From assembly GCA_963827735.1 (NCBI GenBank), contig CAWHBO010000005.1, positions 187,669 to 251,668 of the forward strand: a stretch of 64,000 nt of DNA, in the 5' to 3' direction. Made by a program: the position numbers and the translations under genes. Below, one piece after another: positions 3,412 through 51,209 of this stretch; positions within the stretch are counted from its first letter, which is position 1, and every line of letters begins with the position of its first letter. This DNA comes from Candidatus Parcubacteria bacterium (GTDB taxonomy: Bacteria; Patescibacteriota; Patescibacteriia; Patescibacteriales; UBA12075). Under the pieces are notes generated by a model. The model searched no databases. It worked only from the letters and a program-made list of their open reading frames with translations, and had not been told where the DNA came from.

Positions 3412-3422
3412 TCATTTTATTT

Positions 3423-4589: not shown

Positions 4590-4594
4590 AATTA

Positions 4595-4626: not shown

Positions 4627-4649
4627 AATTTTGACTTTATCTAGTTTCT

Positions 4650-6131: not shown

Positions 6132-6190
6132 AACTCATAACTCATAACTCATAACTCATAACTCATAACTCATAACTCATAACTCATAAC
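6129..6190. repeat. Heptanucleotide tandem repeat (TAACTCA / GTTATGA)x~9 abutting the rel start codon
   Basis: Perfect 7-bp period from 6129 to 6190. The last repeat supplies the ATG of rel. An inverted partner ctcataactcgtaactt lies at 6228-6246. Confidence 0.9.
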
Positions 6191-6394
6191 ATCTTACCTT
6201 AAAAGATTTTTAAAAATAGTTATAAGTTCCAAGTTACGAGTTATGAGAAAAAGAAAGCTGAAGCATGTTTTGGTATAATCTATAGTAATTGGTTTTTTCT
6301 TTGTCTTTTTTCCGCGTTTTATGTTATAATAGTATTACAAACCTGTGGATTAGTCAATTCGCAAAATTTCATTCTTTGCAATAAAACCCCCCCC

Positions 6395-8206: not shown

Positions 8207-8215
8207 AAAATAAGA

Positions 8216-8322
8216 TTGGGAACCCACAAATCAACAAATTTCTACAAATCTACAAATTCAGACAAAAAGTTTTTATAAGTATTTGTTGATTTGTTGCTAT
8301 TCGTAGATTTGTGGGTTCCCAA
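8216..8322. repeat. AT-rich palindromic intergenic element (outer IR ttgggaacccacaaatc / gatttgtgggttcccaa, ACAAAT-rich arms)
   Basis: 17-bp perfect outer inverted repeat with imperfect inner arms. Same family as the element at 28559-28672. Confidence 0.8.
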
Positions 8323-8379
8323 ACAAAGTTAAAATATAGAGACAATTAAATTTATTGTATTGTAATTATTTTTTAAAAG

Positions 8380-11300
8380 ATGAGGCTTAATCATAAAAAA
8401 TTACTTTTCCTTTTCCTGTTCTTGGCTGTCTTTGCCATTGGTTCCAAAGCGCTGGCTGGCGATTTGGGTTTTAATTATGCCAACAATCTTGGCCTTACCA
8501 ATTCTGATATCACGGATCCGAGAGAGTTGCTGGTTAACATCGTCAAATTCGCTTTATCTTTCGTCGGGCTGATCGCGGTTGTTTTTATCATGTATGGCGG
8601 ATTCCTTTGGATGACCGCAAACGGCGATTCCGACAGGATAAGCAAAGCCAAGAAGACTTTGATCTCAGCGGCTATCGGTTTGGCTATAATCATTTCCGCT
8701 TTTGTAATCGTTAATCTTGTGATGAGAGGAACGGGCGCGATAATTTCCGGCACTTGTACGGATTCAGAAACGAGAAGCTGCGGTTGCGGCGGAACGCAGA
8801 CTTGCTCCGGGGGATTTTGGGGATCCTGTATCGGAAGCGATTGCGGCTTAACGCCTTCGTCTTTAAATTTTCAGGTTAAGCGGACAGTTCCCAGAGATCA
8901 AGCTCTGGTTGCCAGAAATGCATCGGTTGCCGTGATTTTCAACCAGCTTATCGGCACCACCGACCAAATCACTTTGAATGATAACTTTACATTTTCTAAA
9001 ATTGCCACGATCAATCCGGATACCTTGGAAGAAGCCGCTATCGCCGAAGAGCCATATGCGGATATCACTGACGTTGTCACGTCCGGCGATGGCTATCGGT
9101 TAACGCGCCAGTCCACGGAAGCTTGCGGCGATGAAAAAGCAACGCCCCATTGTTTTGATTCTTGGACAAAGTACCGCGTTAGGATAAATTCCGGCCTCGG
9201 GGACATTGAAAATACTTCCGGAACGGCCGCTCTGGATCACGCTTTTGAATTCAGCGTAAACAATTTGATTGATACCAATCCGCCAACAGCCGGAATCATT
9301 CCCGCGCAGATTTGTTATGACGACGGAACGCTGGCCGCAGACGCCAACTATATCGGCGCCTGGGGCCGGGACGATGTCGGAATCGGAGCAATGAGATTTT
9401 ATGAACAAGGAAATCCGACGCCGACAATTTCATTTATCGGCAATTCCCAAAAATATCAATATGAAGAATATCAAGTTGATGCCACTGCTTTGACGGTGGG
9501 AGACAGTTTTGTTTCAAGAGTGGCAGTTGACGACATGGTCCCAGATACAGCGTCGGGCAGTTTTTCAACGATCATCAGGCAAGGCCATTGCTGTAACGGC
9601 ATTTTGGACGCCGGAGAAGAGGAAACCGATTGCGGCGGAACTGATTGCGAATCATGTTCAATGCAAAATCCTGTGATTTCCTCTGTATCTCCGGATAACG
9701 GAGCGCCGGGAAATTTCATAACAATCAGGGGCCGGCATTTTGGCAGTACAACCGGAGAAGTGTATTTTTGGAACGGGGTTGATTATACGGTTTTAGCCGC
9801 TTATCCAAATTCCGTAAATGCGAATTGCATAAAAAATTGGTCAGACAGCCAGATCATCGCTGTCGTTCCGGCGCTGGCTTCAAGCGGTCCGATCAGAATC
9901 ATCAGAGGCGACGGAAGAGATGACGCGACTGATGACGATAACGGCCCCTCGGTTCCCGATTTTATCGTAAACGCCGTCACTCGCCCGGGGTTATGCCTGC
10001 TTGCTCCCGATTCTGGAGTTTATCGGGACAGCTTCAGTTTGGAAGGAAATGCTTTTTCCGGTTCCGGGCAGGCAGTGTTTTTTGGAAATGAAACGGATAA
10101 TCTTGAAGCTCCGCATTCAAATTTAACCAACACCAGAGCCTCATCTTCCGTTCCCAATGCCGCTTCCGGCAGAACGACAGTTTTTTTCGCGGCCAATGGG
10201 CAGAATTCAAACTCCTTGTATTTCAACATTGCCAGAGATTTAAACAATCAGCCGGTGATAGATTATATCAGTCCGGAAAACGGTCCGATCGGAGAGTATG
10301 TCACGATTTTCGGCAGCGGTTTCAGCGCGTTTTCAGCGGGAACAAGCAATGTTACATTTACGCGCATCTCGGATGGGACGGAATATGAAATTGAAACCGG
10401 CGCGGATTTTCCAAGCGCATGCCAAGACAAATGGTGGTCAAACAGGCAGATTGTCGTAAAAGTTCCCAATGTCGGAAGCGGCCTCGGCGATTACAGGATA
10501 ACAGTCAGAAGCAGCGGAAATTTAACCAGCGAACCGAAAAATTTTGAGATAACAGCTGGCGCTCCCGGCCCGGGAATTTGTCTGCTTGATCCGGATAACG
10601 GGAAAATCGGGATGGAAATAAATGTTTTTGGAGATAATTTTGGGTCTTCCCAGGGTACCGGTTTTGTCCAGTTTTTTGCGCCCTCTTTGATAAATGTAAG
10701 CGCCGGACTTACCTGGACCAATCAGAACATTAAGGTCAATGTTCCCGTATCCGCTCAGACCGGACCGGTTAAAGTTTCTAAGGGCACTTTGAGCAATGGT
10801 TTGCAATTCCGGGTTGGAGCCTGCGCCACTTCAACCGATTGCGACATTATCAGCGGTGAAGAATGCTGCGGGGCCGGCACTTTCTGGTCAGGCGTTTGCC
10901 GGACAGCCGGAACCTGCGGACAAGGAACCGCCGATTTGACCGGCTATGGCTGGAGCTTTACGGTTTCCAGCTCTTCTTCGGCTCTTGTGTGCGGAGGATT
11001 TTCTGATCAAGCCTCATGCGACGCGGCCAGCCGATGTCCCAATTCTCCCGGAGAATGCCAGACGAATGACAGTTTAAGCACCGGCAAGAATTGCTCAAAC
11101 GCTGATTGCAACAGCCGGTTTGCCCAATGCCAAGGGCAATGCGTCTATGATGGCATCGCAAATTTATGCGTTGCCAATGCCGCGCCTCTCACAACTTCCT
11201 GCGATTTGGCCAGCACAACTTTGATTTCCTCATATACTGCCGTCTGCCGGCAAGTGAATTCCCTTGGAATTTGGCAGATCAACGAACCTTTGCTTTGTCC

Positions 11301-14300
11301 GTCCGGGACGTATCTGGATATCAATGGCTGGTGCACGGTTGGCAGCATTGGTCATCCGGCGCTATGCGGTATCTGCGGAAGCGGATTTTTATGCGACAGC
11401 AACCATCGGTGCGTGGTCAATCAGTCAATTTGCCCGGACAATTCAACCTGTACCGCCGGACAATGCGTTCTTAGCAATGAGGCCTGCGAATGCTGCTGCG
11501 AAGTCGGGCAAGACGATCGTGATTGCTGTCTTGGACTTACTTGCGAAGCGGGGGGTTGCGGCAATGATCCTGTAAACTATGGCTTATGTTCCGGCTGCCG
11601 AGTTGATCTTAACGGAAACAACGCGGACTTGACCGCCGCTGAGCAAACCGCCAGTGATAACGCCTGCAATTGCGAGGGCACGAATGGAAAGTATTGCGAA
11701 ATCGCCGACCCGGCTGATTCTTCCGATCTGGGGGTTTGTAAAGATGCCAAGCCTTGCGACAGCAGTCCCGCGCCCGCGTGCCAAGCTGATAGCGTTTTGT
11801 GCGATACGGGAGAATTTTGCGATACGGATTGTTTTTGTAAAAAAGGAAAACCTTGCGACAACGACCTTGATTCTTCAGTTTGCGGCGCTCCCGGAAATTG
11901 CGACCCGGCTACGGAGTATTGCAACCCGGCTGATTGTTTCTGCCGGCCGGGAAAAAGCTGTGATAACGATCTTGACCCTACAGTTTGCGGCGCTCCTGGA
12001 AATTGCGACCCGGTAACGGAATTTTGCGATGAAGATTGCCTTTGTCAGCCGAATTCAATTCCCGCCGGCGATCCTTGCTTTCAAAATTCTTCATCCACGT
12101 TGCCGGCTTGCAATCCATTCCATTGCGGAAGCGCTTATGAGTGTTTGACAGATAACTATGAAAGCGAAGCCAGCGCTTGCGGATATTGTTGCTGTAATCT
12201 TGATAACGCGAAAACTTCTTTGGACTCTTGCCTTAATTTGAATCCAAATTTTTACTGCGCCGCCACGGCTGATACCGGAAGCGCTTGTTTTGATTCCAAT
12301 GTTTCCACCCCTCCTAATTTCGGCATCTGTTGCGGCTGTTCAGCTGACTCTGAGTGCGGCGGAACCGGGGAAGGCTGCGGAACGGATGCCTGCTGTCATG
12401 GCCGACCAGATGTGGAATCGGTATACCCGTTAGATATGCCGGCCGCCTCGGCCGGAACAGTCTGCCGCAACACGGCAGTTGAGGTAAGATTCAACCAGCT
12501 GATGGATGTTGAAAGTTTTCCCGAAAACATCATCCTGGTCGGCGACTATGGCGTCAGCGCCTGCCCCCAAGGTACCTCTTATTTGGCAGTCAGCGGCGAA
12601 AAAGAGAAAAATTACGGTCTGTTTAAAAAATTAGCTTTTAACATTTTAGAATTCGGAAAGAAAATTCTTGCCCCTGTCCTCCAGGAGAAAGAAGCCAGCG
12701 CTTTCACTCCGGTAAGCGCCCTGCATAATTTTTGCGCGGTAAAAGGTTCGGTTATGAGTTATGCGGAAGACGATAAGAGCGTACTGGTGTTTTCTCCGTC
12801 AAAGCTACTCGACCCCAGCAGGCTTTTTTACGTGATTGTCAAAGGCGATGAAGATTTAAGCAGCGTTACCGGCGTAAAAAATCAATGGGGAATCGGCATG
12901 AATCCCTTGGGTAGCCCTTCGGCTGGAGACAACACTTTTAACAAGATAACTTACGCCCATTCTTATACTTGGTCTTTTACCACGCTTTCCGATCAAGGGA
13001 GTTCCAAGGGCGTCTGCAAGGTTGACCGCGTAACTGTCGCTCCCGCGTCTTATCTTTTTCAAACGGTAAAAAATGATCTCAATGAGGCAGACAACAAAGA
13101 TTCAATCGCTGACAGTGATAAGATTTTTACGGCTAAAGCCAAAACCGCCGACGGTCAGACAGTCGTTCCGGTAAGTGATTATTCCTGGGATTATGCCTGG
13201 ACCGTATTGGATGGAAGCATTGCCCAAATCATAAGCGTTCCCAGCTTTACCGCGACCGGCAGCCGTCAGCTTGTCAGGGCTTCAGCGAACATCACGGACG
13301 GACGGACAGTTCTTTCCGCAACCGCTTCTTCAACCATTGTGCCATCCGGCATGGCTCCTTTCAGCAAGACGGGTGATGCCGAAATATACGTTTTTGTCTG
13401 CCAGAATCCGTGGCCGCCGGTCGTGGGAGGACTTTGGGCTCCTTGGCGGGATAACGGATCTAATTGTTCAGGCGGTTCCACCGGCTGCAACAACACGAAT
13501 TATGAGATTTATTACTGCCGCGATGCCGGAGTTTCAGGTACTTTTGACGATTTGCCTGCAATCGTCAGCAGTTCCACTCTAAGCTTCAGACAGACTCTTG
13601 TCTGCAGCGAAGGGGGCGCGCCTTGCGCCGTTTTGGGGGCGGTTTGCGGCACAGCGGGAACATGCGAAATCGGAGTGCTTAAAGAATCTTTCTTTTTCAG
13701 GGCCGCCGTTCCGGACGTGAGTACCATTACCATCGCCGGCAGTCCGGATGATGAAGGCGGCATCGCGCTTTTGCATTGGAATGATGTTCCCCCCGCCGCC
13801 ATTCCGGCAGAAGAGTCATTAAGTGCGTACAAAGTGTATTATGGCCTTTCTTCAGGAAATTATACCGAGTCTCTGATCGTCAGTATCCTGGATCCGCATA
13901 CGGCAATTTCTCCGTACGCAGTCAGCGGCCTTAAAAATAATGTTAAATATTATTTTGCCATCACCGCGGTTTACGCGAGCGGAGCGGAAAGCGGATTTTC
14001 CAACGAGATTGTTTTAACACCGGCGGATAAGGACGCGCCTGCGGCTCCAAACAATTTTACAGCCATCGCCACTAGCACAAAAGTGGAGCTGAACTGGGAC
14101 GCAGTCAATGGGGCTTCTGGCTACGTCGTGCATTTCGGAACAAACTCAGGCGTATATGGAAGCTCGGAAGATATCGGCGCGGATACGCAAGTGATCGTAG
14201 CCGGCCTGATAAACGGACAGACCTATTATTTTGCGCTTTCTGCCAAGGATAAGAATGGAAATGAGAGTTTGTATTCCAATGAAGTTGCCGCAACCCCGAT

Positions 14301-33711: not shown

Positions 33712-34040
33712 ATGGAAAAGAAATTCAGTCTTATAACGGCAGTAATAGCAATCATAATGGGGGCAATCTTTTTTTCATCGCCTGTCCTTGCCGGAGGCGA
33801 CGGTTATTCAGTCAAACAGGCTGAAGATCTGTGGCAATATGGTGTTGCTGATAAACAAAAGGCAATCACAGTGTTGGAAAAAGTGATAGACCAAAAACCT
33901 TCAAACAACAAGGCGCGTTATCTGTTGGGGCAATATAATTTTGAACTTGGCAAATTTGATGAGGCTTACAAAGCTTTTTCTCCCAATCCGGTTAAAGTGG
34001 ATTATGGCAAAGAGATCGCTGACCTCTACTTTAAAAATGC
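33712..34040 (+). CDS. Small secreted TPR-like protein, 3'-truncated at the compositional junction (the ORF runs artificially into high-GC DNA)
   Basis: Signal peptide [29 protein letters not shown] and TPR-like helices. No stop codon before the GC shift at about 34040. Confidence 0.55.
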
Positions 34041-34043
34041 CGA

Positions 34044-35025
34044 GTCAAGGAGGATCAGGACTACCTCCAGCGCCACCCCGACGGCCCCACCTGCCATTTC
34101 CCTCGGCCGGGCTGGAAGCTGCCGCGCCGCTACCAGGAGGAGGGCCGCGACAGCACGCGGTGGCTCGGCTTCCCGTTCCGCGACGGCGACATCGTGATCA
34201 GCACCCCGTCCAAGACCGGGACCACGTGGGCGCAGATGATCTGCGCGCTGCTGATATTCGGCGAGCCGCAGCTCCCGGCCCCGCTCGGGCGCCTGTCGCC
34301 GTGGCTGGATCACCTGGTCGCGCCACGAGATGAGGTACATGCCCTGCTGGCCGCCCAGCAGCACCGGCGGTTCATCAAGACCCACACCCCACTGGACGGC
34401 CTGCCGCTCGACCCCCGCGCCACCTACCTGGTGACCGCCCGGCACCCGCTGGACGTGGCCGTGTCGACCTACCACCACTGCGCCAACATCGACGAGGCAC
34501 GGTGGCGGCAGCTGATGGGCGAGCCCGAGCCGCCGAGGCCACCGCCGCCGCCAGAGCCGCTGCGCGACTGGCTGCTCCGCTGGATCGCCGACGACACCAA
34601 CCCGGCTCGAGGACCTCGACACGCTGCCCGGCCTCATGTACCACCTCACCGACGCCTGGGCCCGGCGCCGCGAGCCGAACATCCTGCTCGTGCACTACGA
34701 CAACCTGTGCGCCGACCTTGACGGCCAGATGCGCTGGCTGGCAGGCCAGCTCGGCATCACCATCCCCGAGCACGCCTGGCCCGCGCTCGTCCGGGCGGCC
34801 ACATTCGAGAACATGTCCCGCAACGCGGACCAGCTGGTCCCTGCCCCCGGCCTGTTCAAGAGCAACGCCGCGTTCTTCCGCCGGGGCACCTCCGGCGAGG
34901 GACGCGAGATCCTCAGCGGCGCCGAGATCGCCGACTACCACGCCCGCGTGGCGGGGATGGCGCCCCCCGACATGCTTGCCTGGCTCCACTCGCCCCGCCC
35001 CGGAGCCGTGACGGCAATGCCGTAA
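34044..35025 (+). pseudogene. PAPS-dependent sulfotransferase, 5'-truncated at the junction and split by a frameshift near 34600-34615
   Basis: 5'-PSB motif TPSKTGTTW and 3'-PB motif RHPLDVAVS in frame 0. The C-terminal part ([25 protein letters not shown]...FFRRGTSGEGREI) is in another frame. No start codon on the high-GC side. Confidence 0.65.
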
Positions 35026-35383
35026 TCACGACTGGCCCCGCGGGCCACCGATAGGGCGCGGCAGTACCGGCTCATCCCGCCGCAGGCCCGAGAGTGGCAC
35101 CAGGCGAGCAGCCGGGCGGCCCGCCTCGCCGGAGGGTGAGTGTTCAGGACGTCCAGCGGCGCTGTGAGCCCTCGCAATCAGCCAGCCGCCACATCATCGC
35201 CAACTGTGGCCTGACGGCAATAGACAACGTCGAACGCAGAGTCGGGCGCGTCCGATTCTGGGAGCGGATTGGGAGCGGAGGTCCGCCGTCAGCCGCGGTC
35301 AGATGCGGTCAGACTCAGCATGCCCATGCCTGCGACCTGCGGATACGTCGCTCAACCGCCGCATCGACAGCTCACGCGCCCAG

Positions 35384-35428
35384 TTCGGGACGAAGAGGCC
35401 GCCGGTTCAAATCCGGCCACCCCGACCC
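35384..35428 (+). other. tRNA 3'-half-like element (anticodon loop to acceptor; T-arm GCCGG-TTCAAAT-CCGGC), copy 1 of a direct repeat
   Basis: gttcgggacgaagaggccgccggttcaaatccggccaccccgacc. No matching 5' acceptor or D-arm upstream. Followed by a hairpin. Confidence 0.5.
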
Positions 35429-35517
35429 AGGTCACAGGCCCGTTTCCCCTCACGAGGAGCGGGCCTTCCCCTTGCCGAGCGCCACTGGTGCGCCAAGACG
35501 CCGCGTCCACGACTCGA

Positions 35518-35724
35518 TCACCTTGCCGTGAGCGTCGGGCGCCAGATGGGCGTACTCGTCACCGCCTGGGTGGCTGGGATGACCGCTCGCGCAGCACCAC
35601 GTACCACGCTCACCCCCGCGACCCCGGGCGCGGCGCCCGCCACAATCGCTGGCCCAGAGCCCAGAAAGGGACCAGCCATCGCCGTCAGGGCGAGGCCCAC
35701 CAAAGCGGCGGCTTTCATCGTCAT
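35518..35724 (-). CDS. Small secreted protein (68 aa, signal-peptide-like N-terminus)
   Basis: MTMKAAALVGLALTAMAGPFLGSGP... with good GC3. Local AT-richer patch upstream (RBS-like ggaaagg). Confidence 0.3.
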   Translation of the reverse strand: MTMKAAALVGLALTAMAGPFLGSGPAIVAGAAPGVAGVSVVRGAARAVIPATQAVTSTPIWRPTLTAR

Positions 35725-36197
35725 TTTTTCCGTACCTTTCCGCATTGATCCCCGGCTAGCTTGCGATACACCCTTCTTGTGCGGGCCCTGATTTAGCGCA
35801 TTGCGCTGGGGCCGTCGGCTCGCCCGGGCCGGCCACGGCGGTGCGACGGAATGGAAACTACTCTTAGCCGATACGTCCAAAAGGATTGCCAGGCCGCATG
35901 GGCGAGTGGCTGCCCGCGGCCGCTGAGACGAATCCCCCGCGGAGGTAGCGATGGCCGGACGAGGGCGCGGCAGGCGGAAGAACCGGCGAAGCCGGGGCGC
36001 GGCGGCAATCGCGGCCGCGGCGATCACGGCCACCGTGGCCGCCGCCGCGGCCTGGCCGATCAGCGACTCGCTCGCCGCCTCGCCGAAGCCCGGCTGGTTC
36101 ACTGGCCGGGGAGTCCGGCCGCGCCGGGCGGGCGGAGTCGCCCTCAGGCATCCGGGCCGGCTGGGACCCCGTACCCTACCGGCGCGCCCGGCTGTCC

Positions 36198-37082
36198 GTG
36201 CCTGGCCGGTGGCTGGTCGAGACCCCGCGCGAGATCTTCTGCCAGCCCCGCTCTGCCGGCATGATCTTCACCGGCGTCAAGCCAGGGATTCCGAAAGGGA
36301 CGGGCTGTGGCCTGACCGCCAGCTACGCCTGGATCGTGCCGGCCGGTCACATCCCGCCAGGAATCAGCCATCGCAAACCGACCGCGGTGATCAACGGCAT
36401 CCGGGTCTACCGGCGGCCAACTGGCCCGAACTCGGTGCTCTACCTCGTGCCGGAACTCAGCGTGCGAGTCGGCGCGCACGGACCGCTCGGCAGGAGGGTA
36501 TTGGCAACGCTGAACAGGTCACCGCTCTCCGTCGTGCTCGGCAAAGGCCGGGCCAGCCCGGTGCCCGCCCGCTGGGTCTGGCATCAGTTCGGCGGCGTCA
36601 GGTTCGCTGCTCCGCGCACCTGGCACCGGCACCGCCAGACGCAGTGGGCAACCTGCGGCACCGGCGTCGTGCCGGGCTCGCTGGTGCTGATCGATGCGAT
36701 CAAGCCGCCGCTCGCCCTGCCCTGCCCGTTCCCACTCCCCTACGCTGACACGTTCGCGGCCCAGCCTGGCCTGACGGCCGTCACCGGGAAGTTCGCGGCC
36801 AGGTCGGTCGGCGAGCGCTTCACCCGCTGCCAGCAGCGCCATCGCGCCCGGATCTGCCTGGCCGCGGTCACCGGCCATGGCGGCTTCCTCAGCGGCGTGC
36901 TGATCTTCTCGGTCTCTCAGGCCGCACCACCACCCAGCGGCTTTCTTCCTGCTGGGGCTGTCAGGATCAGGTGCACGCGCCCGGGCGATCTTCGACTCAA
37001 TGACACTCAGATAGCCCAGCTCCACCCGAAGCCCTCAGGGCAGCAGGCACGCACTAAGGCCCGTTCACGACTACCTGTCTAA
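36198..37082 (+). CDS. Hypothetical protein (W/Y-rich, strong GC3 bias). A Sec/TAT-like signal peptide is encoded upstream in a different frame (35951-36100), suggesting a frameshifted N-terminus
   Basis: High third-position GC across 36110-37082. Upstream frame encodes RRKNRRSRGAAAIAAAAITATVAAAAAW. Confidence 0.45.
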   Translation: MPGRWLVETPREIFCQPRSAGMIFTGVKPGIPKGTGCGLTASYAWIVPAGHIPPGISHRKPTAVINGIRVYRRPTGPNSVLYLVPELSVRVGAHGPLGRRVLATLNRSPLSVVLGKGRASPVPARWVWHQFGGVRFAAPRTWHRHRQTQWATCGTGVVPGSLVLIDAIKPPLALPCPFPLPYADTFAAQPGLTAVTGKFAARSVGERFTRCQQRHRARICLAAVTGHGGFLSGVLIFSVSQAAPPPSGFLPAGAVRIRCTRPGDLRLNDTQIAQLHPKPSGQQARTKARSRLPV

Positions 37083-37375
37083 TAACACTGTCGCTTCCGG
37101 CAGCCGACTTCTAGCACTCCCGAAATGACAATCTGCGCGTGGCAGGCAACTCGCAACGCCGGTGACTTCGCCGCGCCCATTCGGCGGTCGGGGTCAATCC
37201 AACCGCCCGGGCCGCTGTCACGCGTCGTGATCGCTCTTCGATGTGGCGGTGTGCCAAGCCTCCGTGCACGGAAACTTAGCCACGCAGAGCTAAGCTGCCG
37301 TCACTGTCGATCAACAGGCCGGGGCCGGTTGTGCCGAGGTGAGGAGGGCGGTCACCGGGGTCCGTCACGAGGCCG

Positions 37376-39259
37376 TCACGGTCGGGCCGGCCCGGACCGG
37401 GTGTCGGACATCGGTGTGTTGACCGTGATCTCGCCGGTGTAGGCGCGGAAGTGCAGTGCCGACTCGTGACCATGTCCGTGGTGCAGGGTGAGGTGCGCGA
37501 TCGGGCCGTCGGTGGCCAGGTCGTTGCGGTTGCGGGCATGCCAGTTGCGGTCCGCGAGCGGGAAGTTGGAGCCTGCGATCTCGATCCGGATCCGGTGGCC
37601 TGCCGGGAAGTAGTTCGCGGTGGTGATGCCGCCGATCCGGACCCGGTGGATCTCGCCGGGCACGAGCTTGGCTGGCTGCTCGAAGCCGTCGCGGTAGCGG
37701 AGCCGCAAGCAGCTGTCCGCGAGGTTGTAGGCGGTCCCGTCCGGATAGACGTCCACGAGCTTGACGAAGACATCCGCGTCCTCGACGTCGGCTGACACGT
37801 GCAGTTCCGCGCTGAGGTCGCCGACGATCGCTGTCGGCTCGGTCAGCACGGGCGTGCTGTACACGAGCACATCGGCCCGGCACTCAACCACCCGCTGATC
37901 CACGCAGATCGGGTCATGGGTGGCGAGGTCGCCGCCGAGCGACTGCACGGGGTTGTGCGGGTCGGCGATGAACTCGTCGGTCCCGGCGCCGCGGGCAGCA
38001 GGCACAAGGGCACCGTCGCCCCACAGCGTGTTCGCGGACTTGTCGCTGGCCAGGAAGAGCGTCCGCGTCTCAGTCTCGGGCAGCGGCCAGGACTCGCCGG
38101 TCAGCCAGGTGCACGCGCCCATGAGGAAGACCTGCACCTTCGGCATCGGCTGCCAGGCGTCTGCCTCATCGCCGAGGAACCGGTCGAACCACGAGATGAT
38201 GATCTCGTCGTAGGGGAAGCGGGTGTCGCCCATGGGCCGCTGGCCCAGGCGGGCCTCCGGGCCGGTCACCAGCATCCGGCAGTGCTCCGTCGGCGCCATG
38301 ATCAGGTACTGGTCGGGATGATGCTGCTGGAACTCGAATAGCTTGACCGTCTCGTGGGCGCCGACATCCATCCACCCGTTGAAGTTGATGGACGGCGTCG
38401 CGCCGGTGTGGCTGGCGTTGATCAGGTCAACCACTTTCCAGGCCGGGCTGGCCAGCCCGCCGGCCATGAACGTCTCGTAGCCCGTCAGCGGCGAGCCCAT
38501 CCGCCGCAATATGCCGCCGCTCGGCGCTTGCAGCGTCGCCTTGTCGAGGGCTGCGGTGTACTCCGGGCTGCGGAAGTCCGGCACGGTCACCGAGTACTGC
38601 CGGAAGATCCGGGCCAGCTCGTCGCCCGCGGCGCCGGCGGGCAGCTTCGGCCGCTGCCAGACCCCGAACGGGCCATACCACAGTGCCCATGCCTTGATCA
38701 TGGGAACGCCGCCGCGGAAGAAGCAGCCGTTCGATCCCTCCGCACCCGGGATGTCGCCGACGCCCGCGCCTGAGCTCATCGGCACGCAAGCGCGCAGCGC
38801 CGGATGGCCGATGGCGCCGAGCTTCAGCTGGTTCTCGGCGGTCGAGGAGCAGCCGTGCAGGCCCACCTTGCCGTTGGACCATTCCTGCGCGCTGATCCAG
38901 TCGAGGGTGTCCTGTGCGTCCGCGGTGGTGGTGGTCAGGATGCCGAAGTCGCCTTCTGACCATTCGCTTCCGCGCTCGTTCTGCATGATCAGCGCGTAGT
39001 TCTTCTTGAACTGCGCGGTGTGCATGGGCTTGAACTGATCGGGGATGGCGGCCGCGTACGGTGACCGGACCAGGAGGGTGGGATATCGGCCTTCAGCGCG
39101 CGGCCGGAAGACCACAGTCGCCAGCCGGATTCCGTCGCGCATCGGCAGCATGATGTAGTCGACCCGGTAGCGGATGGTGTCCGCTCCGAGGGCGCGGACA
39201 GCCGATTCGAGCGCTGTGGGCGGCCGGAACTCCTCGGGCCTGTCGTCGGCTGCTGTCAT
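37376..39259 (-). CDS. CocE/NonD-family hydrolase (X-Pro dipeptidyl-peptidase S15-like) with an atypical nucleophile motif
   Basis: Intact 627-aa ORF from MTAADDRPEEF. C-terminal X-Pro dipeptidyl-peptidase-like beta-sandwich region. The catalytic region reads GLHGCSSTAEN rather than the canonical GxSYxG. Confidence 0.6.
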   Translation of the reverse strand: MTAADDRPEEFRPPTALESAVRALGADTIRYRVDYIMLPMRDGIRLATVVFRPRAEGRYPTLLVRSPYAAAIPDQFKPMHTAQFKKNYALIMQNERGSEWSEGDFGILTTTTADAQDTLDWISAQEWSNGKVGLHGCSSTAENQLKLGAIGHPALRACVPMSSGAGVGDIPGAEGSNGCFFRGGVPMIKAWALWYGPFGVWQRPKLPAGAAGDELARIFRQYSVTVPDFRSPEYTAALDKATLQAPSGGILRRMGSPLTGYETFMAGGLASPAWKVVDLINASHTGATPSINFNGWMDVGAHETVKLFEFQQHHPDQYLIMAPTEHCRMLVTGPEARLGQRPMGDTRFPYDEIIISWFDRFLGDEADAWQPMPKVQVFLMGACTWLTGESWPLPETETRTLFLASDKSANTLWGDGALVPAARGAGTDEFIADPHNPVQSLGGDLATHDPICVDQRVVECRADVLVYSTPVLTEPTAIVGDLSAELHVSADVEDADVFVKLVDVYPDGTAYNLADSCLRLRYRDGFEQPAKLVPGEIHRVRIGGITTANYFPAGHRIRIEIAGSNFPLADRNWHARNRNDLATDGPIAHLTLHHGHGHESALHFRAYTGEITVNTPMSDTRSGPARP

Positions 39260-39827
39260 GCGCGGTCGACCTCCCGCGGTATTTGTTATCCGATCAATGC
39301 GCCGGGTTTGCGGTCCATTATCGATGTTGAGGCAACAGCGGCCGCAGAGCCGTCCGCCTCGACGGCTTCCGCCGCTCCGGCCCGGGAACCATCGCGCCAC
39401 GACGCCCAGCACAGAACCGGGAACTCTGGACCTTAACCAGCGGCCGTGCCAGCCCAACTGGACAAGCTCGTAATCGTTCTGCTGCGTTTCCTGGTGCCTG
39501 CGCTTTGGTGACCAGGCCGTACAGGTGGTGACCTGGCGTGACGACCAGTGCGATCTTACGGTCGAGTGGTCAGTTCTATTGCTTGGGCCGCGGTCGGCCC
39601 GGCAGCCTTCGGGGTCTCAGCCCAGCTCTGGAGAGGTCGCGTGATCGTGATGGGGGTGACCCTCCGGATCCTGCGAGACTGAGGCTGACCTGCCGATAGG
39701 ACTGCTCGGCCTGACGCGGCTGCGGGTTCGCGCCCTGCGCCGCGGACTGACCGGGGGCTGCCGATGGAATCTTCCGCGACGATGTCCGCTTCACACGGTA
39801 TCCGCGCTCGAACGCGAGTCGGCGGAA

Positions 39828-41056
39828 GTGCGGGCGCGCCGCCTGGCTGCCGCGCGCCGGCGGGCTACCGCTCTCCTGGCCGGGGTGACGGTTGTGTTCG
39901 TGGCCGTGACTGTGGCCGGTGTCCACGGGACGCTGCTTGGGTACGTGCAGGCCGGCGCCGAGGCGGCCATGGTCGGAGGCGTGGCGGACTGGTTCGCGGT
40001 GACGGCTCTGTTCCGCCGTCCTCTTGGCCTGCCGATACCGCACACTGCGCTGATCGTCGAGCGCAAGGATCAGTTCGCCGCCACTCTTGGCCAGTTCGTG
40101 CAGGAGAACTTCCTCAACGGCGATGTTCTTGCCGAGCGGATCCGCTCCGCCCGGCTCGTTGCCCGCCTGGCTGCCTGGCTCGCCGACGAGGCCAACGCCG
40201 CCGGCTTCGCCGGTCACGCCGCGGATCTGGTGGTCACGGTGGCCGAGGCTCTTGCGTGATGAGGATGTCCAGCGCGTGGTCACCGCCGAGCTGACCCGGG
40301 CGGCAGACGCCGTCGAGGTGGCGCCGCTGGCTGGGCGGGCCGTGCGGGTCCTCATGGCGGGAGGCCACCACGCCGAGTTGTTTAACGCCATCGTGTCCGG
40401 CGCCGATCGCTATCTCGCCGATCATCACACCGAGCTTCGCGAGCTGTTTGAGGCCGAGTCACCCCGCTGGGTGCCCGACGCGGTGTACCAGCGGGTCTTC
40501 GACCGCCTGTACAGCCGCCTGCGCGACAGGCTGGCGGCGATGGCGGCCGATCCGGACGACGAAGCCCGGCACCAGTTCGAGGAATGGCTCGCCGGGCTTC
40601 CCGACCGCCTCGAGACATCCCCCGAGCTGCGCGAGCGCGGGGAGCTGCATCAAGCGCGATGTCCTGGGCAGCGCCGCGCTGCGGGACTGGTCCTCGTCGC
40701 TGTGGAAGAGGCCAAGGACACGCTCCGGACCCAGGCGGCCGACCCAGGGTCTGAGCTGCGCCGCCGGCTGGCCGGTGCGCTGGCGGCGGCAGGCGGGCGC
40801 CTTGGATCAGACCGCCGCCTCCAAGACAGCGTCGAGCGTGTCGTCGAATCAGGAGCCAGGGCACTCGCCGATCAGTTCCACGACGAGCTTCGCTGGCCTG
40901 GTCACGGGAACCATCCAGCGGTGGGACGCCGCACAGACGTCGAGCCAGCTGGAGCTGCTACTAGGACGCGACCTGCAGTTCATCCGCATCAATGGCACAG
41001 TGGTGGGAGCTGGCGTGGGCCTGGCCTTGCACGCCATCGTCCTGGCCCTGGCCTAA
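39828..41056 (+). pseudogene. DUF445-family membrane protein, interrupted by two frame changes (about 40250 and about 40895)
   Basis: N-terminus GGVADWFAVTALFRRPLGLPIPHTALIVERKDQF and C-terminus GRDLQFIRINGTVVGAGVGLALHAIV are both DUF445 signatures, but they lie in three different frames. Confidence 0.6.
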
Positions 41057-41279
41057 TCCACGCCCATCTTGAGGCGGGCCCGGTCCTGCCAGGAAGCACG
41101 TGCTTCCCGGCGCGGCAGGCACGGCTCCTTCCAAGCCCTGACGGCGCCCGCACGCGCCGTTGACGTCGAAGACGGCACCACCGTCACCGCGACGAAGCCA
41201 TCGGCGGTCGTCACGCTCCCTAACCGATGATCTGCGCTCCTGCAGTGCCCGTGGCCGGCCAGACCGCTTACGCTGTACC

Positions 41280-41456
41280 CAGTTCGACCAGCGGACGCTG
41301 CGGCTGATCGGGCCAGCGCACCGCCAAGAGCCCGACGCCGTGGTGGCCGCAAGCCAGCGCATCGGCTGGCTCACCTGGGAGAAGTGCCACGACCTGATCA
41401 AGGCCAACTCCGGCGGCGGCTGCGCGTGGCTTGAGGCTGAGGAACGGACCGGATAA
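41280..41456 (+). CDS. Small hypothetical protein (...GWLTWEKCHDLIKANSGGGCAWLEAEERTG)
   Basis: Strong GC3 over about 180 nt. Start codon uncertain. Confidence 0.3.
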   Translation, partial: QFDQRTLRLIGPAHRQEPDAVVAASQRIGWLTWEKCHDLIKANSGGGCAWLEAEERTG

Positions 41457-41738
41457 TCGGACGGCTGCTCTCCTCGCTCGGATCGCGAGCCCGGCGGGGC
41501 AACCTTCTCCAGTGCCACGATTACTTCCGGTGGAGCAAACGCAGGTCAGCACAGCAACAACTCGTCCGGCGCACGGAGCGCCTGACATCCTCAGGGCATT
41601 TTCGAGGAGTTCCGCCGCTGCGGCGAGCGCAATCTCACGTCCTGACGTGCGGGCGCTGCTCCGGCCGTTCCGGCGCGATGATCGTCGCCGCGGGGCCACC
41701 GTCGGATACGGTGCTCAGCCCCAGGACCTGACAGCGGG

Positions 41739-42136
41739 CTAGACCGTGGCGGGCCAGAAAAAAGCGGTCCACGCGCAGATCAGCGCGTCGATCAGGTCTT
41801 CGCGGTGCTTGTGGGCAGCGTCGCTGTCCGGTGACGCTTCCTCAGCCAGCTGCCTGCCGACCGGGTGGGTGTGCAGGAGGAGCGGCGGGTCAGCGGCTGC
41901 CAGCCGGCTGATCCGGCTGATGAGGATGTCGCAGTTCGCGGCGCGCTCACGTTTCCATTGGGCAGCCGCGACCCGTCGTGGCTTGCGGTGCCGTCATCGC
42001 GCGAGCACGCGTCTGCCAGCGCCAGCAGCACCGGGCGCTCGTTGCCCAATGTCGGCGAGTTCGCCCACACCCAGGTCAGCACCGCGATGCTCACCGAGGC
42101 CGCCTTTCCGGGCCCCTGGCCACGCGGGTTCCGCAT
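41739..42136 (-). pseudogene. HTH_36-like (helix-turn-helix, mobile-element-type) protein, frameshifted
   Basis: MRNPRGQGPGKAASVSIAVLTWVWANSPTLGNERPVLLALADACSRDDG... with good GC3, then a frame change to ...ILISRISRLAAADPPLLLHTHPVGRQLAEE.... Confidence 0.45.
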
Positions 42137-42321
42137 CGGCGCAGGCCGCCCGAGCCGGTCCCCTCCGGCCCGCGCCAGTGCAGCGAGCTGGTGTCCGATT
42201 CTGGGAGTGAAATGGGAGCGGCCAAGTTCCGTCAGGTGCCCTCAGGTGCGGCGAGCCGCTTCCTGTCACTGCCGCTGACCTGCGCAGACGCGTCTGGCCA
42301 GTATGGTCGAACGGATGCGTG

Positions 42322-42400
42322 CCTGGTTCGGGACGAAGAGGCCGCCGGTTCAAATCCGGCCACCCCGACCAGGTCAGAGGCCACTTGTGAGCTTCACAGG
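42322..42400 (+). other. tRNA 3'-half-like element copy 2 (same 46-nt sequence as at 35384) followed by a 13-bp stem hairpin and T-run
   Basis: gttcgggacgaagaggccgccggttcaaatccggccaccccgacca, then aggccacttgtga/tcacaggtggcct and tttt. Confidence 0.5.
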
Positions 42401-42436
42401 TGGCCTTTTGCATGTGCTGAGTGACCAACTGAGTGA

Positions 42437-42710
42437 CTATCCGTCGGAGTCCGTGGCCGGGAAGATGCGATCCATGGCATCGGCACCGTGCAAGAGAACG
42501 GGCCGAATCTGCTTGCGGTAAACGGTCTCGGTTGTGGCAGTGCCGCTGTGCCCGACCAGACGGGCAATGTGCTCGACCGGAACGTCGGCATCCGACATCA
42601 GCGAGACGAAGCTGTGCCGAAGTTCCCTCGGAGTCCACTCCCCGGCTCCAAGGGCGCGCCTGGCGGCGCGCCAGCACTCCGGCTCGTGCTCGCTGAAGCG
42701 CCGAAGGACG
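42437..42710 (-). pseudogene. Tyrosine recombinase (phage-type integrase) C-terminal fragment
   Basis: ...WTPRELRHSFVSLMSDADVPVEHIARLVGHSGTATTETVYRKQIRP (box II: HxLRH...LGH...Y). No integrase-like sequence in any frame further upstream. Confidence 0.7.
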
Positions 42711-43362
42711 GTCATCGATACGTGGAGGCCGAAGACGGCATGTGCCTGCCTGCCGGTTCGGGCTGAGAGCGACGGGGATACCCGAGCCGCGCGGGCGGCG
42801 GGCTGTGCCCGCGCCTCTGCGCTTTGAGGGCGCCCGGCGCGGACTGGCCCGCCTCGCGTGCTCATCCCCGCGCCTGCCCGCACGGGGCAGCTCGCCGCAA
42901 CGGAGCGGGCACATGACCGGCCAGCATTTAGCGAACAGCCGAGGGTTGACGAACAGGTGGCGGCTTCGCCGCAGAAGGCCAGCGGGGCGCTGCCCCGGAC
43001 CCCGGCCCTCCCTCAGAGATGGGATCTGGTCTACCAGGTCATCCCCTCGCCCGGCCAGGCAGAGCGCTACGCCCGAACCCCCGGACAGTGCTAGGGCTCG
43101 CTTTGCTCGGCCTCCGGCAGACCCTTGCACTCCCCGGAGAACCGGGCGCAGCCCCGCAGGGTGCCCGACCGAGGAGATGACCTTCAGCCCGCCAGGTGGT
43201 GTCTGCGTGCCAGCCTTGAGTGTGATCATCCACGGCTAGATCCCGGCGCCTATCAGAAGAACGAGCGATGAGTGGATGATGCTCGTCCGGTCGCCGAACC
43301 GCCAGCTTGCGATGTGTCGTGCATCTACTTATGATGGTCATGTGAGTAAGGTGCAGGGCCCG

Positions 43363-43704
43363 ATGCGGGAGCCGACGTACTTCGTGCTGGCGTCGCTGCT
43401 GGACGGGCCGCTGCATGGTTACGCGATCATCCAACGTGCCGGGGAATTGTCGGCTGGCCGGGTCCGGCTGGCGACTGGGACGTTGTACACGGCGCTAGAC
43501 CGCCTTTGCGCTGAGGGATATGTGGAGCTGGTGCGCGAGGAGATCGTGAACGGCCGGGTGCGGCGCTCGTACGGGCTGACGCCGCCTGGTGCGGGGGCGC
43601 TGCGGGCCGAGGCGGCGCGGATGGCGGAGGCGGCCCGGCTGGTGACGGACCGGGGCCGCGGGCTGCGGGCGGGCGGCGCTGCGCGGAAGGCGAGTCCGGC
43701 GTGA
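43363..43704 (+). CDS. PadR-family transcriptional regulator
   Basis: MREPTYFVLASLLDGPLHGYAIIQ...GTLYTALDRLCAEGYVE...GRVRRSYGLTPPG. Confidence 0.75.
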   Translation: MREPTYFVLASLLDGPLHGYAIIQRAGELSAGRVRLATGTLYTALDRLCAEGYVELVREEIVNGRVRRSYGLTPPGAGALRAEAARMAEAARLVTDRGRGLRAGGAARKASPA

Positions 43705-44262: not shown

Positions 44263-44755
44263 TGACCTCAATACTGGCGGTGCCGGTGACGTCTGACCTG
44301 AGAGTGCCTAACTGAGTGATGACGACAATGCTCGTGGCCACACGCCAGCGGACGCTCATGGATATGAGCGCCCAGGTCATGCGCGGATGCTGCCACGTCA
44401 TCGAAGTGCCGAAGTGCCCTCGTAATGAACAGGTCCGCAGATAACCAGTGAAGGCGCGGCCTGGCTTCTGAGTGACCAACTGCGTGACAACGGTCGCGGC
44501 GAACCGGATACCACGGGCGGACACCAGCGGACAGTCGTAGCAGGCTGGCAGGCTCATCGTGGGTGGCGAGTGGACTCTCTGACTTGCCTGATAAGGAAGA
44601 AGTCGATGGAGGCTGAGCCGGTCAGGCGCCCTGTTCTCATTCCGAAGTTAAAAGGCTAGTTAGCACCTGGTTTACCACCCTCTCGTTGGGTAGTCCCATA
44701 CACATCCGAATGGCTCGAACAGATGCAATGACGACCTATCATGTAGGATCGTGGC

Positions 44756-45531
44756 ATGGTGGAGCATCCCGAACTAGAGCGTGCGCTGCTCGCATCGGTC
44801 AATGATGCGATTAACCGACTCGCGCGTGATCCCAGTGCTAGAGACTACACAACAGATCTTGGCCACTGGCAGCGCGATCCAGAGGGGGCCTTCCGGATAG
44901 CGAGCGGCCCATAGATTTTGGAGTCGCACCGCACTGAGCCGCCAATTCGATCTGCCTACTTGGACGGCAGTTCTTGACGTGCTTCGCTGAGATGGCAGGC
45001 TAAATCGCCAACTACGATACTCTCGTTGGAACTGCGCAAAATAGTCATCGTATCGAAACAACAAGTATCGGTCGGCGTGTCCTACCACGCCCGAACGAGC
45101 TTGACCAGGTCACCGAAGCTTTCGAGAAGCACTACCAAGAGATTGAGGCTTTCCTAGCCGCAAATCAGATCGAGTACACAGTTATATGGCCGATGCCAGG
45201 CCTCACAATCGATGTGCTACCCATTCAACTAGAGGCCACGCTAGAGCTCGACGCCATGACGGACCGCGAACTGGGGTTTGCCCTGGATACTGAGATTGTG
45301 CGTACGACATTCCCACGCGAAAGGCTCTTTAATCGAACGCCTGAACATCGTACTTGTGTGCGCTACCAGTATAGCTTGCCCAAAGTGGTCGGAGACCGGG
45401 ACATAAATGAGACGCTTCGTACCGGCGAGGACATCGAGAATACGCTTCGGCATATCGAGTTGGCATTGAAAGAGTCACTGGCGATCGTATTGCCAGATGC
45501 GATCGGGATGGCAGGCCGCTTTGGCATCTAA
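44756..45531 (+). pseudogene. Hypothetical protein of a lower-GC sub-island, readable only across at least three frames (44756-44914, about 44915-45003, 45004-45531)
   Basis: About 55% GC versus about 70% in the surroundings. Protein-like segments MVEHPELERALLASVNDAINRLARDP... and ...NELDQVTEAFEKHYQEIEAFLAANQIEYTVIWPMPGLT...RHIELALKESLAIVLPDAIG. Confidence 0.4.
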
Positions 45532-45614
45532 GCAAGCCAGGAAGCCCTCTGTCAGGAGGCATTGCCTTCCAGCAAGCTACGTTGCCACAAGGCCCGCGTC
45601 TACGCCGCGCGCAT

Positions 45615-46135
45615 ATGAGTAATAGCCAGGCTTCCGAACTGTTTGAGGTCTGGCAATTTATACGCCAACCTGGGCTACTGCAAAGGCACAAGGGTCTAGC
45701 CTGGCCCTCCGTAGGTTGAGCTACCAGGCGCAACGAGAGCAACCCGAGGATGAGCTGCTAGACACGATGATTGCCGCCGAGGCGCTGTACCTAACAGACG
45801 TGGGTAATGAGGCAGAGCGCGGGGAACTTCGCTACCGACTTGCGCTACGCGCCGCCCTCTATAGCGGGCTAACCCGAGAGGCAGAAGTCGGATATACTGC
45901 ACGCGAAGTGCTTGGAATCATGAAATCTGCCTACGATGCGCGTAGCGCGATTGCCCATGGAGGGACACCCAAACCCGGAGACATGAAAGTGCGAGGGCAG
46001 AGAGTCTCACTTGGCGAGCTTGCTAAGGCCGCAAAGTCTGTGATTACTGCTGGCTGTCGAGCCGCTCTAGCCAAAGCAGTATCTCCAGAGGGAGGCTGGC
46101 CGCCAGACTGGGATGGCTTGGCTTTGGGTGTTTGA
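45615..46135 (+). CDS. HEPN-like domain protein (Rx4HG motif); ATG 45615 and TTG 45716 are in different frames, so a frameshift is possible
   Basis: ...ELRYRLALRAALY...YTAREVLGIMKSAYDARSAIAHGG.... Lies in the lower-GC island. Confidence 0.4.
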
Positions 46136-50556: not shown

Positions 50557-50669
50557 TCTGCGTGCAAAACGAGGAATTCACTGTTTAGTTGTCAAGGCTC
50601 AAGCAGGCTGAGCTGCCGCTGAAGCCTGGTCGCATGCCGCCGCTGCAGACTCCGGCGGTCTTGCTAACA
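50557..50669. repeat. About 111-bp direct repeat, copy 2
   Basis: Same sequence as 49237-49347, with a 2-nt indel after cctgg. Confidence 0.85.
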
Positions 50670-50774
50670 GACTGCTAACTACGGTTATGGATCCCTGCCG
50701 TCAGGCCTGGTCAGTCAGATTGCGCAGCGCGACATATTTGGCCGGTCAGATGGCCGAAGGTGGACCGACTTTGA

Positions 50775-50826
50775 CCCGCAAAGCCTCCTGAAAAGCGGAA
50801 GGTCGGCGGTTCGATCCCGCCCCTGA
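50775..50826 (+). other. tRNA 3'-fragment-like element (T-arm GGCGG-TTCGATC-CCGCC, GAA-anticodon-loop-like ctgaaaa). Related copies at 55665-55720 and, partially, 47185-47215
   Basis: cctcctgaaaagcggaaggtcggcggttcgatcccgcccctgacca. The upstream sequence cannot form D and acceptor arms. Confidence 0.45.
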
Positions 50827-51209
50827 CCACGCGCTGACCTGGGCAAACGCGCTTCTGGAGATCGTTCGCCGGCGGCGTGTCGCATTTCTAGTCTCAGTGA
50901 GCAGCCCTGAATCGCATGCCGCCGCGCGAATAACAGCAGGTCCGAAGGCTTGCAAGGTCGGCAAAGCTGCCCCTCGTCCGCTCCGAAAGCGGACGGCTCG
51001 GCGTGCACCCGCGTACATAGGCGTCTGCATGGGCACGTCGTGGTTGAAGTGCACTTGCTGCCACCGGCGGCTCTCCGGGTCGCAGCCGGGCGGAGCGGCC
51101 ACCCCCCGCACCCGGTCACGTCGTGCTGCAAGGTGGCCAGGACCAGGCTGGTCGCGGTCAGCGCCACCCCGGTCTGGACGGCCGACGATTCCCGACGGCG
51201 ATCGTCAGG

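Follow-up and report, generated by a model that had tools for sequence, protein, structure and literature searches.

How did the same 3′ portion of a tRNA gene come to stand twice, 6.9 kb apart, in contig CAWHBO010000005.1 (assembly GCA_963827735.1, filed under Candidatus Parcubacteria bacterium)? The window analysed here is a stretch of 64,000 nucleotides from this contig, and an initial annotation of its positions 35384–42710 had taken the two copies for the ends of one degraded integrative element, with its integrase to the right of copy 2 and its target tRNA lost. That this is degraded integrative DNA of the tRNA-targeting, tyrosine-recombinase kind, bounded by attachment-site (att) repeats of a tRNA-Pro 3′ portion, is supported. 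We read the region, with a probability of about 0.8, as an array of integrative elements, now decayed, that accreted at a tRNA-Pro(CGG) attachment site. The repeat copies are the leftover attachment-site junctions of at least three stacked islands of at least two integrase families; from left to right, copy 1 stands between the tail of island A and island B, and copy 2 between island B and island C. The reading is built on what was directly observed: the two repeats and their origin from a tRNA, the remnants of both integrases, the arm repeats, an external family of similar units and complete reference elements.

How long is the repeat, and from what is it derived? BLAST aligns 35250–35440 with 42193–42382 as a 191-nt direct repeat of 73% identity, made up of a diverged arm of about 133 nt and a core of 58 nt; the two cores are 96.5% identical. 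The repeat reported earlier is real, since a probe of 22 nt, drawn from T-arm and acceptor sequence, matches the window twice (35404, 42347) and 100 shuffles not at all, but the 46 nt then given are the best-conserved part of a longer repeat, and the coordinates of copy 2 were about 4 nt off. The tRNA-derived 45 nt of each core (35384–35428 and 42327–42371) are exactly the 3′ 45 nt of the intact tRNA-Pro(CGG) of the related contigs L057, L081 and L117. The match sets in precisely at the anticodon loop (TTCGGGA, anticodon CGG) and continues through the variable loop and the T-arm to the acceptor 3′ strand; the tRNA 3′ end reads CCA in core 2 and CCC in core 1, and about 12 further nucleotides are common to both. 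No tRNA is called by ARAGORN or Rfam at either core, and a probe for the tRNA-Pro 5′ end across the window found nothing meaningful. Both copies do lack a 5′ half, and each is followed by a hairpin, as the initial annotation held; hairpins homologous to that of core 1 stand at the equivalent position in L117 and L022.

In integration of this kind, the crossover made by a tyrosine recombinase falls within the tRNA gene's anticodon loop, and the element brings its own tRNA 3′ portion. Each event restores the tRNA on the integrase-proximal side and leaves the element's arm and a tRNA 3′ half on the distal side. Where integrations are stacked, an internal junction consists of a P arm (the end of the older neighbour), the core, a P′ arm and the integrase of the next element. 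Do the two copies have this form? At both, a homologous arm of about 133 nt lies to the left and unrelated DNA to the right, which is what a P–O–P′ junction should look like. The arm of copy 1 begins with GTCCGATTCTGGGAGCGGATTGGGAGCGG and continues with tandem GGTCAGA/TGCGG motifs. Since copy 1 is itself preceded by an element arm, it is the right junction of a further island and not the left end of a single element, and the array comprises at least three islands.

The integrases point the same way. Both remnants lie on the minus strand and end 20–55 nt from a core, convergent with the tRNA as att architecture requires. Arm-type repeats are found on both sides of the identity segment, where integrase would bind. 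To the right of copy 1 about 40 codons survive of an integrase of the type that we call int1, beside a degenerate arm motif, GCCACTGGTGCGCCAA (~35482–35497). The right flank of copy 1 clusters with those of L022 and L071, both of which carry int1 at the equivalent place, and aligns base for base to the attL of L117 through the hairpin and the arm motif into the integrase. L117 is a complete element of 7.7 kb. At one end it has tRNA-Pro, the hairpin, GTGCGTCACTGGTGCGTCAG and int1, and at the other an arm with GTGCGTCGCCGATGCGTCAAG and the tRNA-Pro 3′ half. The closest int1 homologues in the protein database converge on an intact tRNA-Pro(CGG) that stands in its native context, metallophosphoesterase–YqeY–PBP–WhiB; more distant relatives have tRNA-Val as target and the same architecture, as in L116, an 8.6-kb element at tRNA-Val with an HTH_17 Xis and a Prim-Pol gene. 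We conclude that the int1 relic and the GCCACTGGTGCGCCAA motif are the left, attL-side, end of island B (35441–42382). The arm repeats of this island are the degenerate GCCACTGGTGCGCCAA at the P′ end and tandem TCAGGTGC(C/G) in the arm.

To which island does the integrase to the right of copy 2 belong? It is a tyrosine-recombinase C-terminal fragment, as had been proposed: the C-terminal ~72 aa (RH..GH..Y region), corresponding to positions 114–167 of the 172 in the PF00589 profile. It is 72% identical (E 8e-30) to the integrase of L060, of the type that we call int2. Genes for int2 follow the arm-plus-core unit in at least 16 loci, in all lengths from full (L045, L090) down to stubs of 20 aa. 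The 21-nt arm-type repeat at 42414–42434 is equally placed in nine related loci, and a near-identical second repeat, CTGAGTGACCAACTGCGTGAC (44468–44488), opens the arm at the far end of island C. In reverse complement the two read GTCACTCAGTTGGTCACTCAG and GTCACGCAGTTGGTCACTCAG; GTCACTCAGTTGGTCACTCAG matches the pACPL/pSAM2-type repeat GTCACCCAGTTAGT(T/C)AC(C/T)CAG. The segment 44468–44585 can be aligned to arms of L016 and L099, both of which end in a tRNA-Pro core; the homology ends at ACTTGCC. Judged by its sequence, island C (42383 to ~44585, about 2.2 kb) is a remnant of pSAM2/pACPL type, which holds the integrase stub, a PadR gene and both arm repeats. Int2 is established as a tyrosine recombinase, and it is the arm repeats that carry the likeness to pSAM2 and pACPL. 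A tRNA-Ile core at 44585 (‘CCTGATAAGG’) was considered and rejected, as no T-arm follows downstream. Two Streptomyces plasmid matches (H20, H21) have an int2-like fragment in a different arrangement, disrupted by an insertion sequence.

Could there nevertheless be one degraded element between the repeats, with the fragment right of copy 2 as its integrase and its target tRNA destroyed? Such an element would indeed leave a pair of direct repeats, here 6.9 kb apart, and a fragment of an integrase close by. The fragment, however, lies outside the repeats and between 21-nt arm repeats of its own (42414, 44468), so that it belongs to island C and not to island B; within the repeats, adjoining copy 1, is the relic of an integrase of a different family; an element arm stands to the left of copy 1; and the sequence ends artificially 1.3 kb upstream. 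We regard the single element as very improbable.

How would the array have arisen? Each element would once have been inserted at the anticodon loop of the tRNA-Pro gene, making copy 1 the junction of islands A and B, and copy 2 that of islands B and C. Arrays of this kind grow by a standard rule, the newcomer integrating into the reconstituted tRNA, and we infer from it that C was the first to integrate, followed by B and then by A. An intact tRNA would be expected further upstream of copy 1. Island B would most simply be one element of int1 type, eroded until nearly all of its integrase was gone; what it still has are a hydrolase gene, the DUF445 gene in broken form, a pseudogene of HTH_36 type and the right arm. 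Island C would have been reduced to an integrase C-terminus, the PadR gene and two 21-nt arm repeats. None of the three islands is able to move by itself. The correct annotation of the region is a graveyard of tRNA-Pro islands and not a single element.

The features are collected in table 1. Pfam scans covered 34–52 kb, with 35430–37400 searched in six frames and 39450–42200 and the rest as selected open reading frames (ORFs). They yielded only the sulfotransferase, the S15 hydrolase, DUF445, PadR and integrase fragments; the six-frame search of 35430–37400 gave no match.

Table 1. Features of the tRNA-Pro island array in the window, with the GTGTCCGATTYTGGGAGC sites of related loci (last row, in the coordinates of those loci).
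Feature	Position	Strand	Evidence or remark
Sulfotransferase, two frames (34035–34721, 34516–35025)	34035–35025	+	PF00685 on both pieces
Family-1 left arm (P arm), copy 1	35250–35382	+	in register with copy 2 and >100 external units
Core 1	35383–35440	+	tRNA-Pro(CGG) 3′ portion plus 12 nt
Hairpin after core 1	35436–35466	+	−20.5 kcal/mol, z −2.0
int1-type tyrosine integrase, C-terminus relic (..GHPSHPGGDEYAHLAPDAHGKVIESW..)	35462–35584	−	tblastn E 2e-7 against L071 integrase
ORF, function unassigned	35949–37082	+	codon-position GC signal; Pfam negative
S15/CocE-NonD hydrolase, apparently intact, island B cargo	37376–39259	−	PF02129 2e-33, PF08530 3e-40
DUF445 gene over three frames	39830 (approximate)–41163	+	PF04286 1e-29 on ORF 40087–41163
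HTH_36 pseudogene	41792–42097	−	86% identity to L008 protein over 36 aa
Family-1 left arm (P arm), copy 2	42193–42325	+	in register with copy 1 and >100 external units
Core 2	42326–42382	+	tRNA-Pro(CGG) 3′ portion 42327–42371, ends CCA
Hairpin after core 2, terminator-like	42379–42409	+	−25.9 kcal/mol, z −5.7, then UUUU
21-nt arm-type repeat CTGAGTGACCAACTGAGTGAC, P′ arm of island C	42414–42434	+	immediately before integrase stop codon
int2-type tyrosine integrase remnant, island C	42437–42676	−	PF00589; phrog_1 integrase 1.4e-9
PadR-like regulator, island C	43240–43704	+	PF03551 4e-14
Family-2 (pSAM2-type) P arm, island C	44468–44585	+	21-nt match, alignment to L016/L099 arms
GTGTCCGATTYTGGGAGC sites in related loci	L057 5105–5130; L081 1870–1915; M26 (L002+L006) 6890–6930; L117 2860–2900		

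Is the target tRNA really gone, as the initial annotation held? The GC content is about 40% up to ~34045 and about 68–70% from ~34060 on, rising from 0.41 to 0.73 within about 100 nt, and the switch interrupts genes on either side; a TPR gene on the low-GC side has ~111 codons left in the window versus 347 aa in an independent assembly. The window is an artificial join of two unrelated sequences near 34045, and conclusions drawn across that point are invalid. The high-GC, actinobacterial sequence begins only ~1.3 kb upstream of copy 1, and the loss of the tRNA is therefore unsupported. The host of the high-GC part is a soil actinobacterium, probably related to the Streptosporangiaceae. The frameshifted sulfotransferase is the last gene of island A, itself cut off by the junction at ~34045–34060.

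If the window is chimeric, might the duplication itself be an artefact of assembly, for example a mis-joined repeat in a metagenome-assembled genome (MAG) or long-read assembly? Several genes here are frameshifted, and the related MAGs do come from long-read assemblies. An explanation of this kind has to contend with the 27% divergence between the two arms, with independent homologues of each flank that show the same junction types in short-read metagenome contigs, and with indels in the HTH_36 gene that are multi-base and not homopolymer slips; we find it hardly conceivable. A second artificial join, at 44.6 kb, was also considered and is unsupported, because the GC content falls there gradually and not stepwise: over 44300–46000, just past the arm of island C, it declines to 0.48–0.55.

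What has happened to the genes of island B? The CocE/NonD hydrolase, the frameshifted DUF445 gene and the decayed HTH_36 gene of the initial annotation are all there. The N- and C-terminal parts of DUF445 are in frames other than that of the ORF carrying the Pfam match. In the HTH_36 pseudogene the first 36 codons are conserved and multiple indels follow (−5 and +11 nt in the DNA alignment). Long-read error may account for the frameshifts of some genes, HTH_36 excepted; the multi-base indels against an intact relative suggest that for HTH_36, at least, the decay is genuine. This pseudogene closes island B on the right, where it reads away from the arm at a distance of ~98 nt, and resembles the N-terminus of a Rep protein (PHROG 5e-17). 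Homologues adjoin units in L008, L012–14, L016 and L023; no integrase was found within 10 kb in the contexts of the homologues. To the left of its arm, L023 carries an HTH_36 and zinc-ribbon Rep-like protein and a conjugation protein of the SCO6880 family (NCBIfam 1.8e-55). The idea that HTH_36 is an obligatory partner of the arm was dropped, since only four of 98 left flanks carry it; it is cargo or replication machinery of one sub-lineage of elements. The hydrolase, DUF445, sulfotransferase and PadR genes are likewise to be read as island cargo or pseudogenes.

Is the junction peculiar to this window? A scan with the pattern GATTCTGGGAG, a gap of 125–153 nt and GGTTCRAATCCGG found 10 loci in soil actinobacterial MAGs and 97 metagenome stretches. 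All units align in register, with a sharp onset of conservation at GTGTCCGATTCTGGGAG and a stop at the tRNA 3′ end. In order, the units have GTGTCCGATTCTGGGAG, another TGGGAGCGG at a distance of 11 nt, TCAG(G/A)TGCG repeated two or three times in tandem every ~10 nt, a CTGACCTGCG block and the tRNA-Pro 3′ portion. We infer that the tandem short motifs are putative arm-binding sites of the integrase. The initial annotation had allowed that its 46-nt repeat might prove part of a longer, unrelated repeat family; a longer family does exist, but it is the att arm itself and strengthens the att reading. Three of the contigs (L057, L081, L094) carry an intact tRNA-Pro(CGG) 1.6–4.6 kb upstream of the unit in the same orientation, among the conserved housekeeping genes PBP, YqeY and metallophosphoesterase, and the related loci L117–119 have an intact tRNA-Pro as well. 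Tandem direct units or cores, 0.45–9 kb apart, occur in M26, L004, L014, L016, L019, L050, L092 and L098. Neither of two pattern scans of viral contigs returned a unit, hence there is no sign of a phage origin, and BLAST of the units against phages and plasmids gave generic tRNA-Pro matches or none. One locus of the pattern scan, L108, is a false positive, an unrelated dense array of eight tRNA genes. The unit is a signature of ~190 nt by which junctions of tRNA-Pro islands can be recognised in over 100 contigs of soil actinobacteria, and it could help island-finding software to delimit arrays; L117 (tRNA-Pro) and L116 (tRNA-Val) supply complete reference elements.

So discrete a unit might also be thought to encode a small RNA resembling a tRNA, or to be a tRNA-Pro pseudogene that has taken up a large insertion, with a transcript that ends at the hairpin. 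Its boundaries would suit, as would the terminator-like hairpin after many copies, the pairing by RNAalifold of the arm YGGG with CCCG of the acceptor 3′ strand, and the presence of a degenerate, full-length tRNA-Phe-like sequence elsewhere in the window (50744–50830). Yet the consensus fold of 60 diverse units is weak, at −16 kcal/mol with a covariation term of −0.6 and one compensatory pair; neither Rfam nor ARAGORN matches either copy; and the partner of the anticodon stem is absent. The blocks are tandem direct repeats of 9–11 nt with helical spacing, typical of protein-binding DNA, and identity sets in exactly at the recombinase crossover position. We consider an RNA gene a very remote prospect, and the conserved arm blocks are best read as protein-binding DNA repeats rather than RNA structure.

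How do the members of the family vary? L014 (1700–2310, minus strand) has a pair of family-1 arms at a distance of 450 nt from each other, whose cores break off after GTTCGGGA and after GTTCGGGACGAAGA and give way to unrelated DNA. This looks like recombination with secondary sites that are not tRNA genes, and the points of truncation place the crossover at the anticodon loop. The same contig has, at 2900–12700 beside an HTH_36/arm module, an Eco29kI-type restriction–modification system with Vsr, a large helicase and DISARM DrmE; these genes are defence-system cargo of a related island. Within L009 (7473–7801, minus strand) an N-terminal integrase fragment, comprising the arm-binding and early core-binding parts, stops right at the boundary of the tRNA core, a truncation opposite to that in the window. 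The same alpha/beta-hydrolase (93% aa identity) follows the unit in L004 (2660–3571, plus strand) and L007 (1174–2085, minus strand), in opposite orientations. L016 (reverse complement, 2880–4985) has, within ~2 kb after a family-1 unit, two arms of pSAM2 type, or family 2, one with a partial core of 22 nt and one with the full core of 46 nt; unit and arms are separated by single genes, an acetyltransferase and an ORF of no known kind. Mosaic arms occur ~65 nt after the unit in L099 (3992–4480) and L107 (782–1260), with a family-1 start (GTGTCCGATTTTGGGAGCCCGTTGGGAGCG) and a family-2 end (..GCCAGCGGACGCTGACGGAC..CTTGGC plus core). Finally, many cores, and intact tRNA-Pro genes too, have 55–85 nt downstream one or two tandem copies of GTGTCCGATTYTGGGAGC, the conserved outer motif of the family-1 arm; this is seen in three flank lineages. 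Their geometry parallels that of the arm repeats of the other two families, and GTGTCCGATTYTGGGAGC may be the P′ arm of islands that lack an integrase, or a site for an accessory protein.

Do the islands then still move, with help from outside? The family-1 units could be the recombination sites of integrase-less cassettes, akin to cis-mobilizable elements or satellites, which the integrases of int1 and int2 elements would retain and shuffle at tRNA-Pro in trans, a working system of cargo accretion rather than decay alone. The arm would in that case be the site of action, ~133 nt with tandem TGGGAGCG and TCAGRTGCG motifs, joined to the tRNA-Pro 3′ half. Much in the family is in keeping with this: more than 100 sharply bounded units with well-conserved arms, 39 clusters among the right flanks of 93 units, the short single-gene intervals of L004 and L016, the hydrolase found in either orientation in L004 and L007, the cores of L014 cut exactly inside or just after the anticodon loop, and the lack of any cognate integrase beside the motif-(i) P′ arm. 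Mobility, however, is nowhere evident in the present data, and many recent, related elements would also explain why the arms are conserved. The integrases next to units are found at all stages of decay, as plain erosion predicts, and island B in the window contains pseudogenes. We therefore think trans-mobilized cassettes unlikely. We are as doubtful of a wider version, in which integrase-less cargo islands are widespread in soil Actinobacteria, gather at tRNA-Pro and are excised or shuffled in trans via the family-1 unit, by integrases of int1-type and pSAM2-type elements resident alongside, with GTGTCCGATTYTGGGAGC serving an accessory protein.

Several observations weigh against an array of decayed elements. 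Island C ends after ACTTGCC without a core, where a tRNA core is expected. Queried alone in Pfam, PHROGs and PDB, the int1 fragment has no match, and only its homology to integrases equally placed in L022, L071 and L117 reveals what it is. The right arm of island B is of family 1 and differs in design from the arm of the int1 element L117; what connects the two is the similarity of GATGCGGTCAG to GATGCGTCAAG, the GATGCGGTCAG-type repeats of the island B arm being one indel away from the int1 arm sites. No integrase is seen beside the GTGTCCGATTYTGGGAGC sites, and part of the family-1 arm is left without explanation. Neither ARAGORN nor Rfam finds an intact tRNA-Pro in the window, so that the origin of the array lies out of view. 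Pfam detects no replication, transfer or excisionase genes in the scanned ORFs and frames, and no excisionase (Xis/HTH_17) was detected next to int in the window.

What should the islands be called? A functional AICE, as the integrative and conjugative elements of actinomycetes are called, has a replication module (RepSA, RepAM or Prim-Pol) and an FtsK/SpoIIIE-type transfer gene, in most cases together with Nudix and Kor/Pra regulators. The Pfam scans of 34–52 kb detected neither module nor transfer gene, the one related item being the HTH_36 pseudogene, and the islands are for this reason remnants and not AICEs. They belong to a well-known kind, the tRNA-targeting integrative elements of actinomycetes and their remnants, and are a common scar rather than a new system.

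The nearest likeness is to pSAM2 of Streptomyces ambofaciens and pACPL of Actinoplanes sp. SE50/110, AICEs that have the tRNA-Pro 3′ end as target, like the elements of the window, and whose attP lies directly downstream of int. The reported identity segment of pSAM2 is 58 bp long, the same length as the core in the window. Both elements have two arm-type repeats of ~21 nt around the identity segment (PMC3364876, PMC2440964); in the attP of pACPL these flank the tRNA-Pro identity segment and have been likened to the integrase-binding arm-type sites of pSAM2 (PMC3364876). The repeats in the window are arranged in the same manner, one between core and int, the other ~100 nt away on the far side. 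Island C, in contrast, measures ~2.2 kb, against 11–14 kb for the known elements; its integrase is down to ~72 aa, it is without xis, repSA, tra, spd, pra/kor and nud, and the right-hand core is missing.

Stacking, too, has precedents. Tandem AICEs with a common att site, AICE remnants, and an attP directly downstream of int are documented (PMC2440964). AICESav3708 and AICESav3728 of S. avermitilis integrated successively into the ‘same’ tRNA and share an att site of ~44 bp, and remnants such as Sco3997 and Sare1208 retain int or parts of it and have lost other modules, as in the window (PMC2440964). The array described here differs in having at least three islands and two or three att/int families, in being far more eroded, and in that its tRNA-proximal end lies outside the available sequence.

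Island B is best set beside the small int–xis–Prim-Pol elements of soil Actinobacteria, here L117 and L116, in which int1 is convergent with the tRNA, with a hairpin and tandem GTGCGTCA between them, and the distal arm has tandem 9–11-mers ~100–125 nt ahead of a 3′ half of the tRNA, from the anticodon loop onward. It differs from them in having ~40 codons of int1 and no xis or Prim-Pol gene, and a distal arm of family 1 with an extra, outer GTCCGATTCTGGGAG module absent from the L117 arm. Cis-mobilizable elements (CIMEs), as known from the ICESt1/ICESt3 type of integrative and conjugative element (ICE) in Streptococcus, are flanked by att sites, lack recombination and transfer genes, arise by ICE decay and occur in tandem at one site. 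In layout island B resembles them, being bounded by att cores without a functional int or transfer genes. CIMEs belong to another phylum and another recombinase lineage.

Are there traces of other elements beyond island C? Between 44.6 and 50.7 kb the coding signal is weak, and Pfam was negative on the ORFs selected there. At 50744–50830 ARAGORN calls an 87-nt ‘tRNA-Gly(CCC)’, which scores 25.6 bits in Rfam against a gathering score of 29. In its sequence it looks more like a degenerate tRNA-Phe(GAA) whose D-loop has a 20-nt insertion and whose anticodon stem is broken. It is preceded, ~100 nt upstream, by a tandem CTGCTAAC pair (50660–50684) and by motifs of the GGTCAG kind, and this is possibly a further att relic, of an element that targeted tRNA-Phe.

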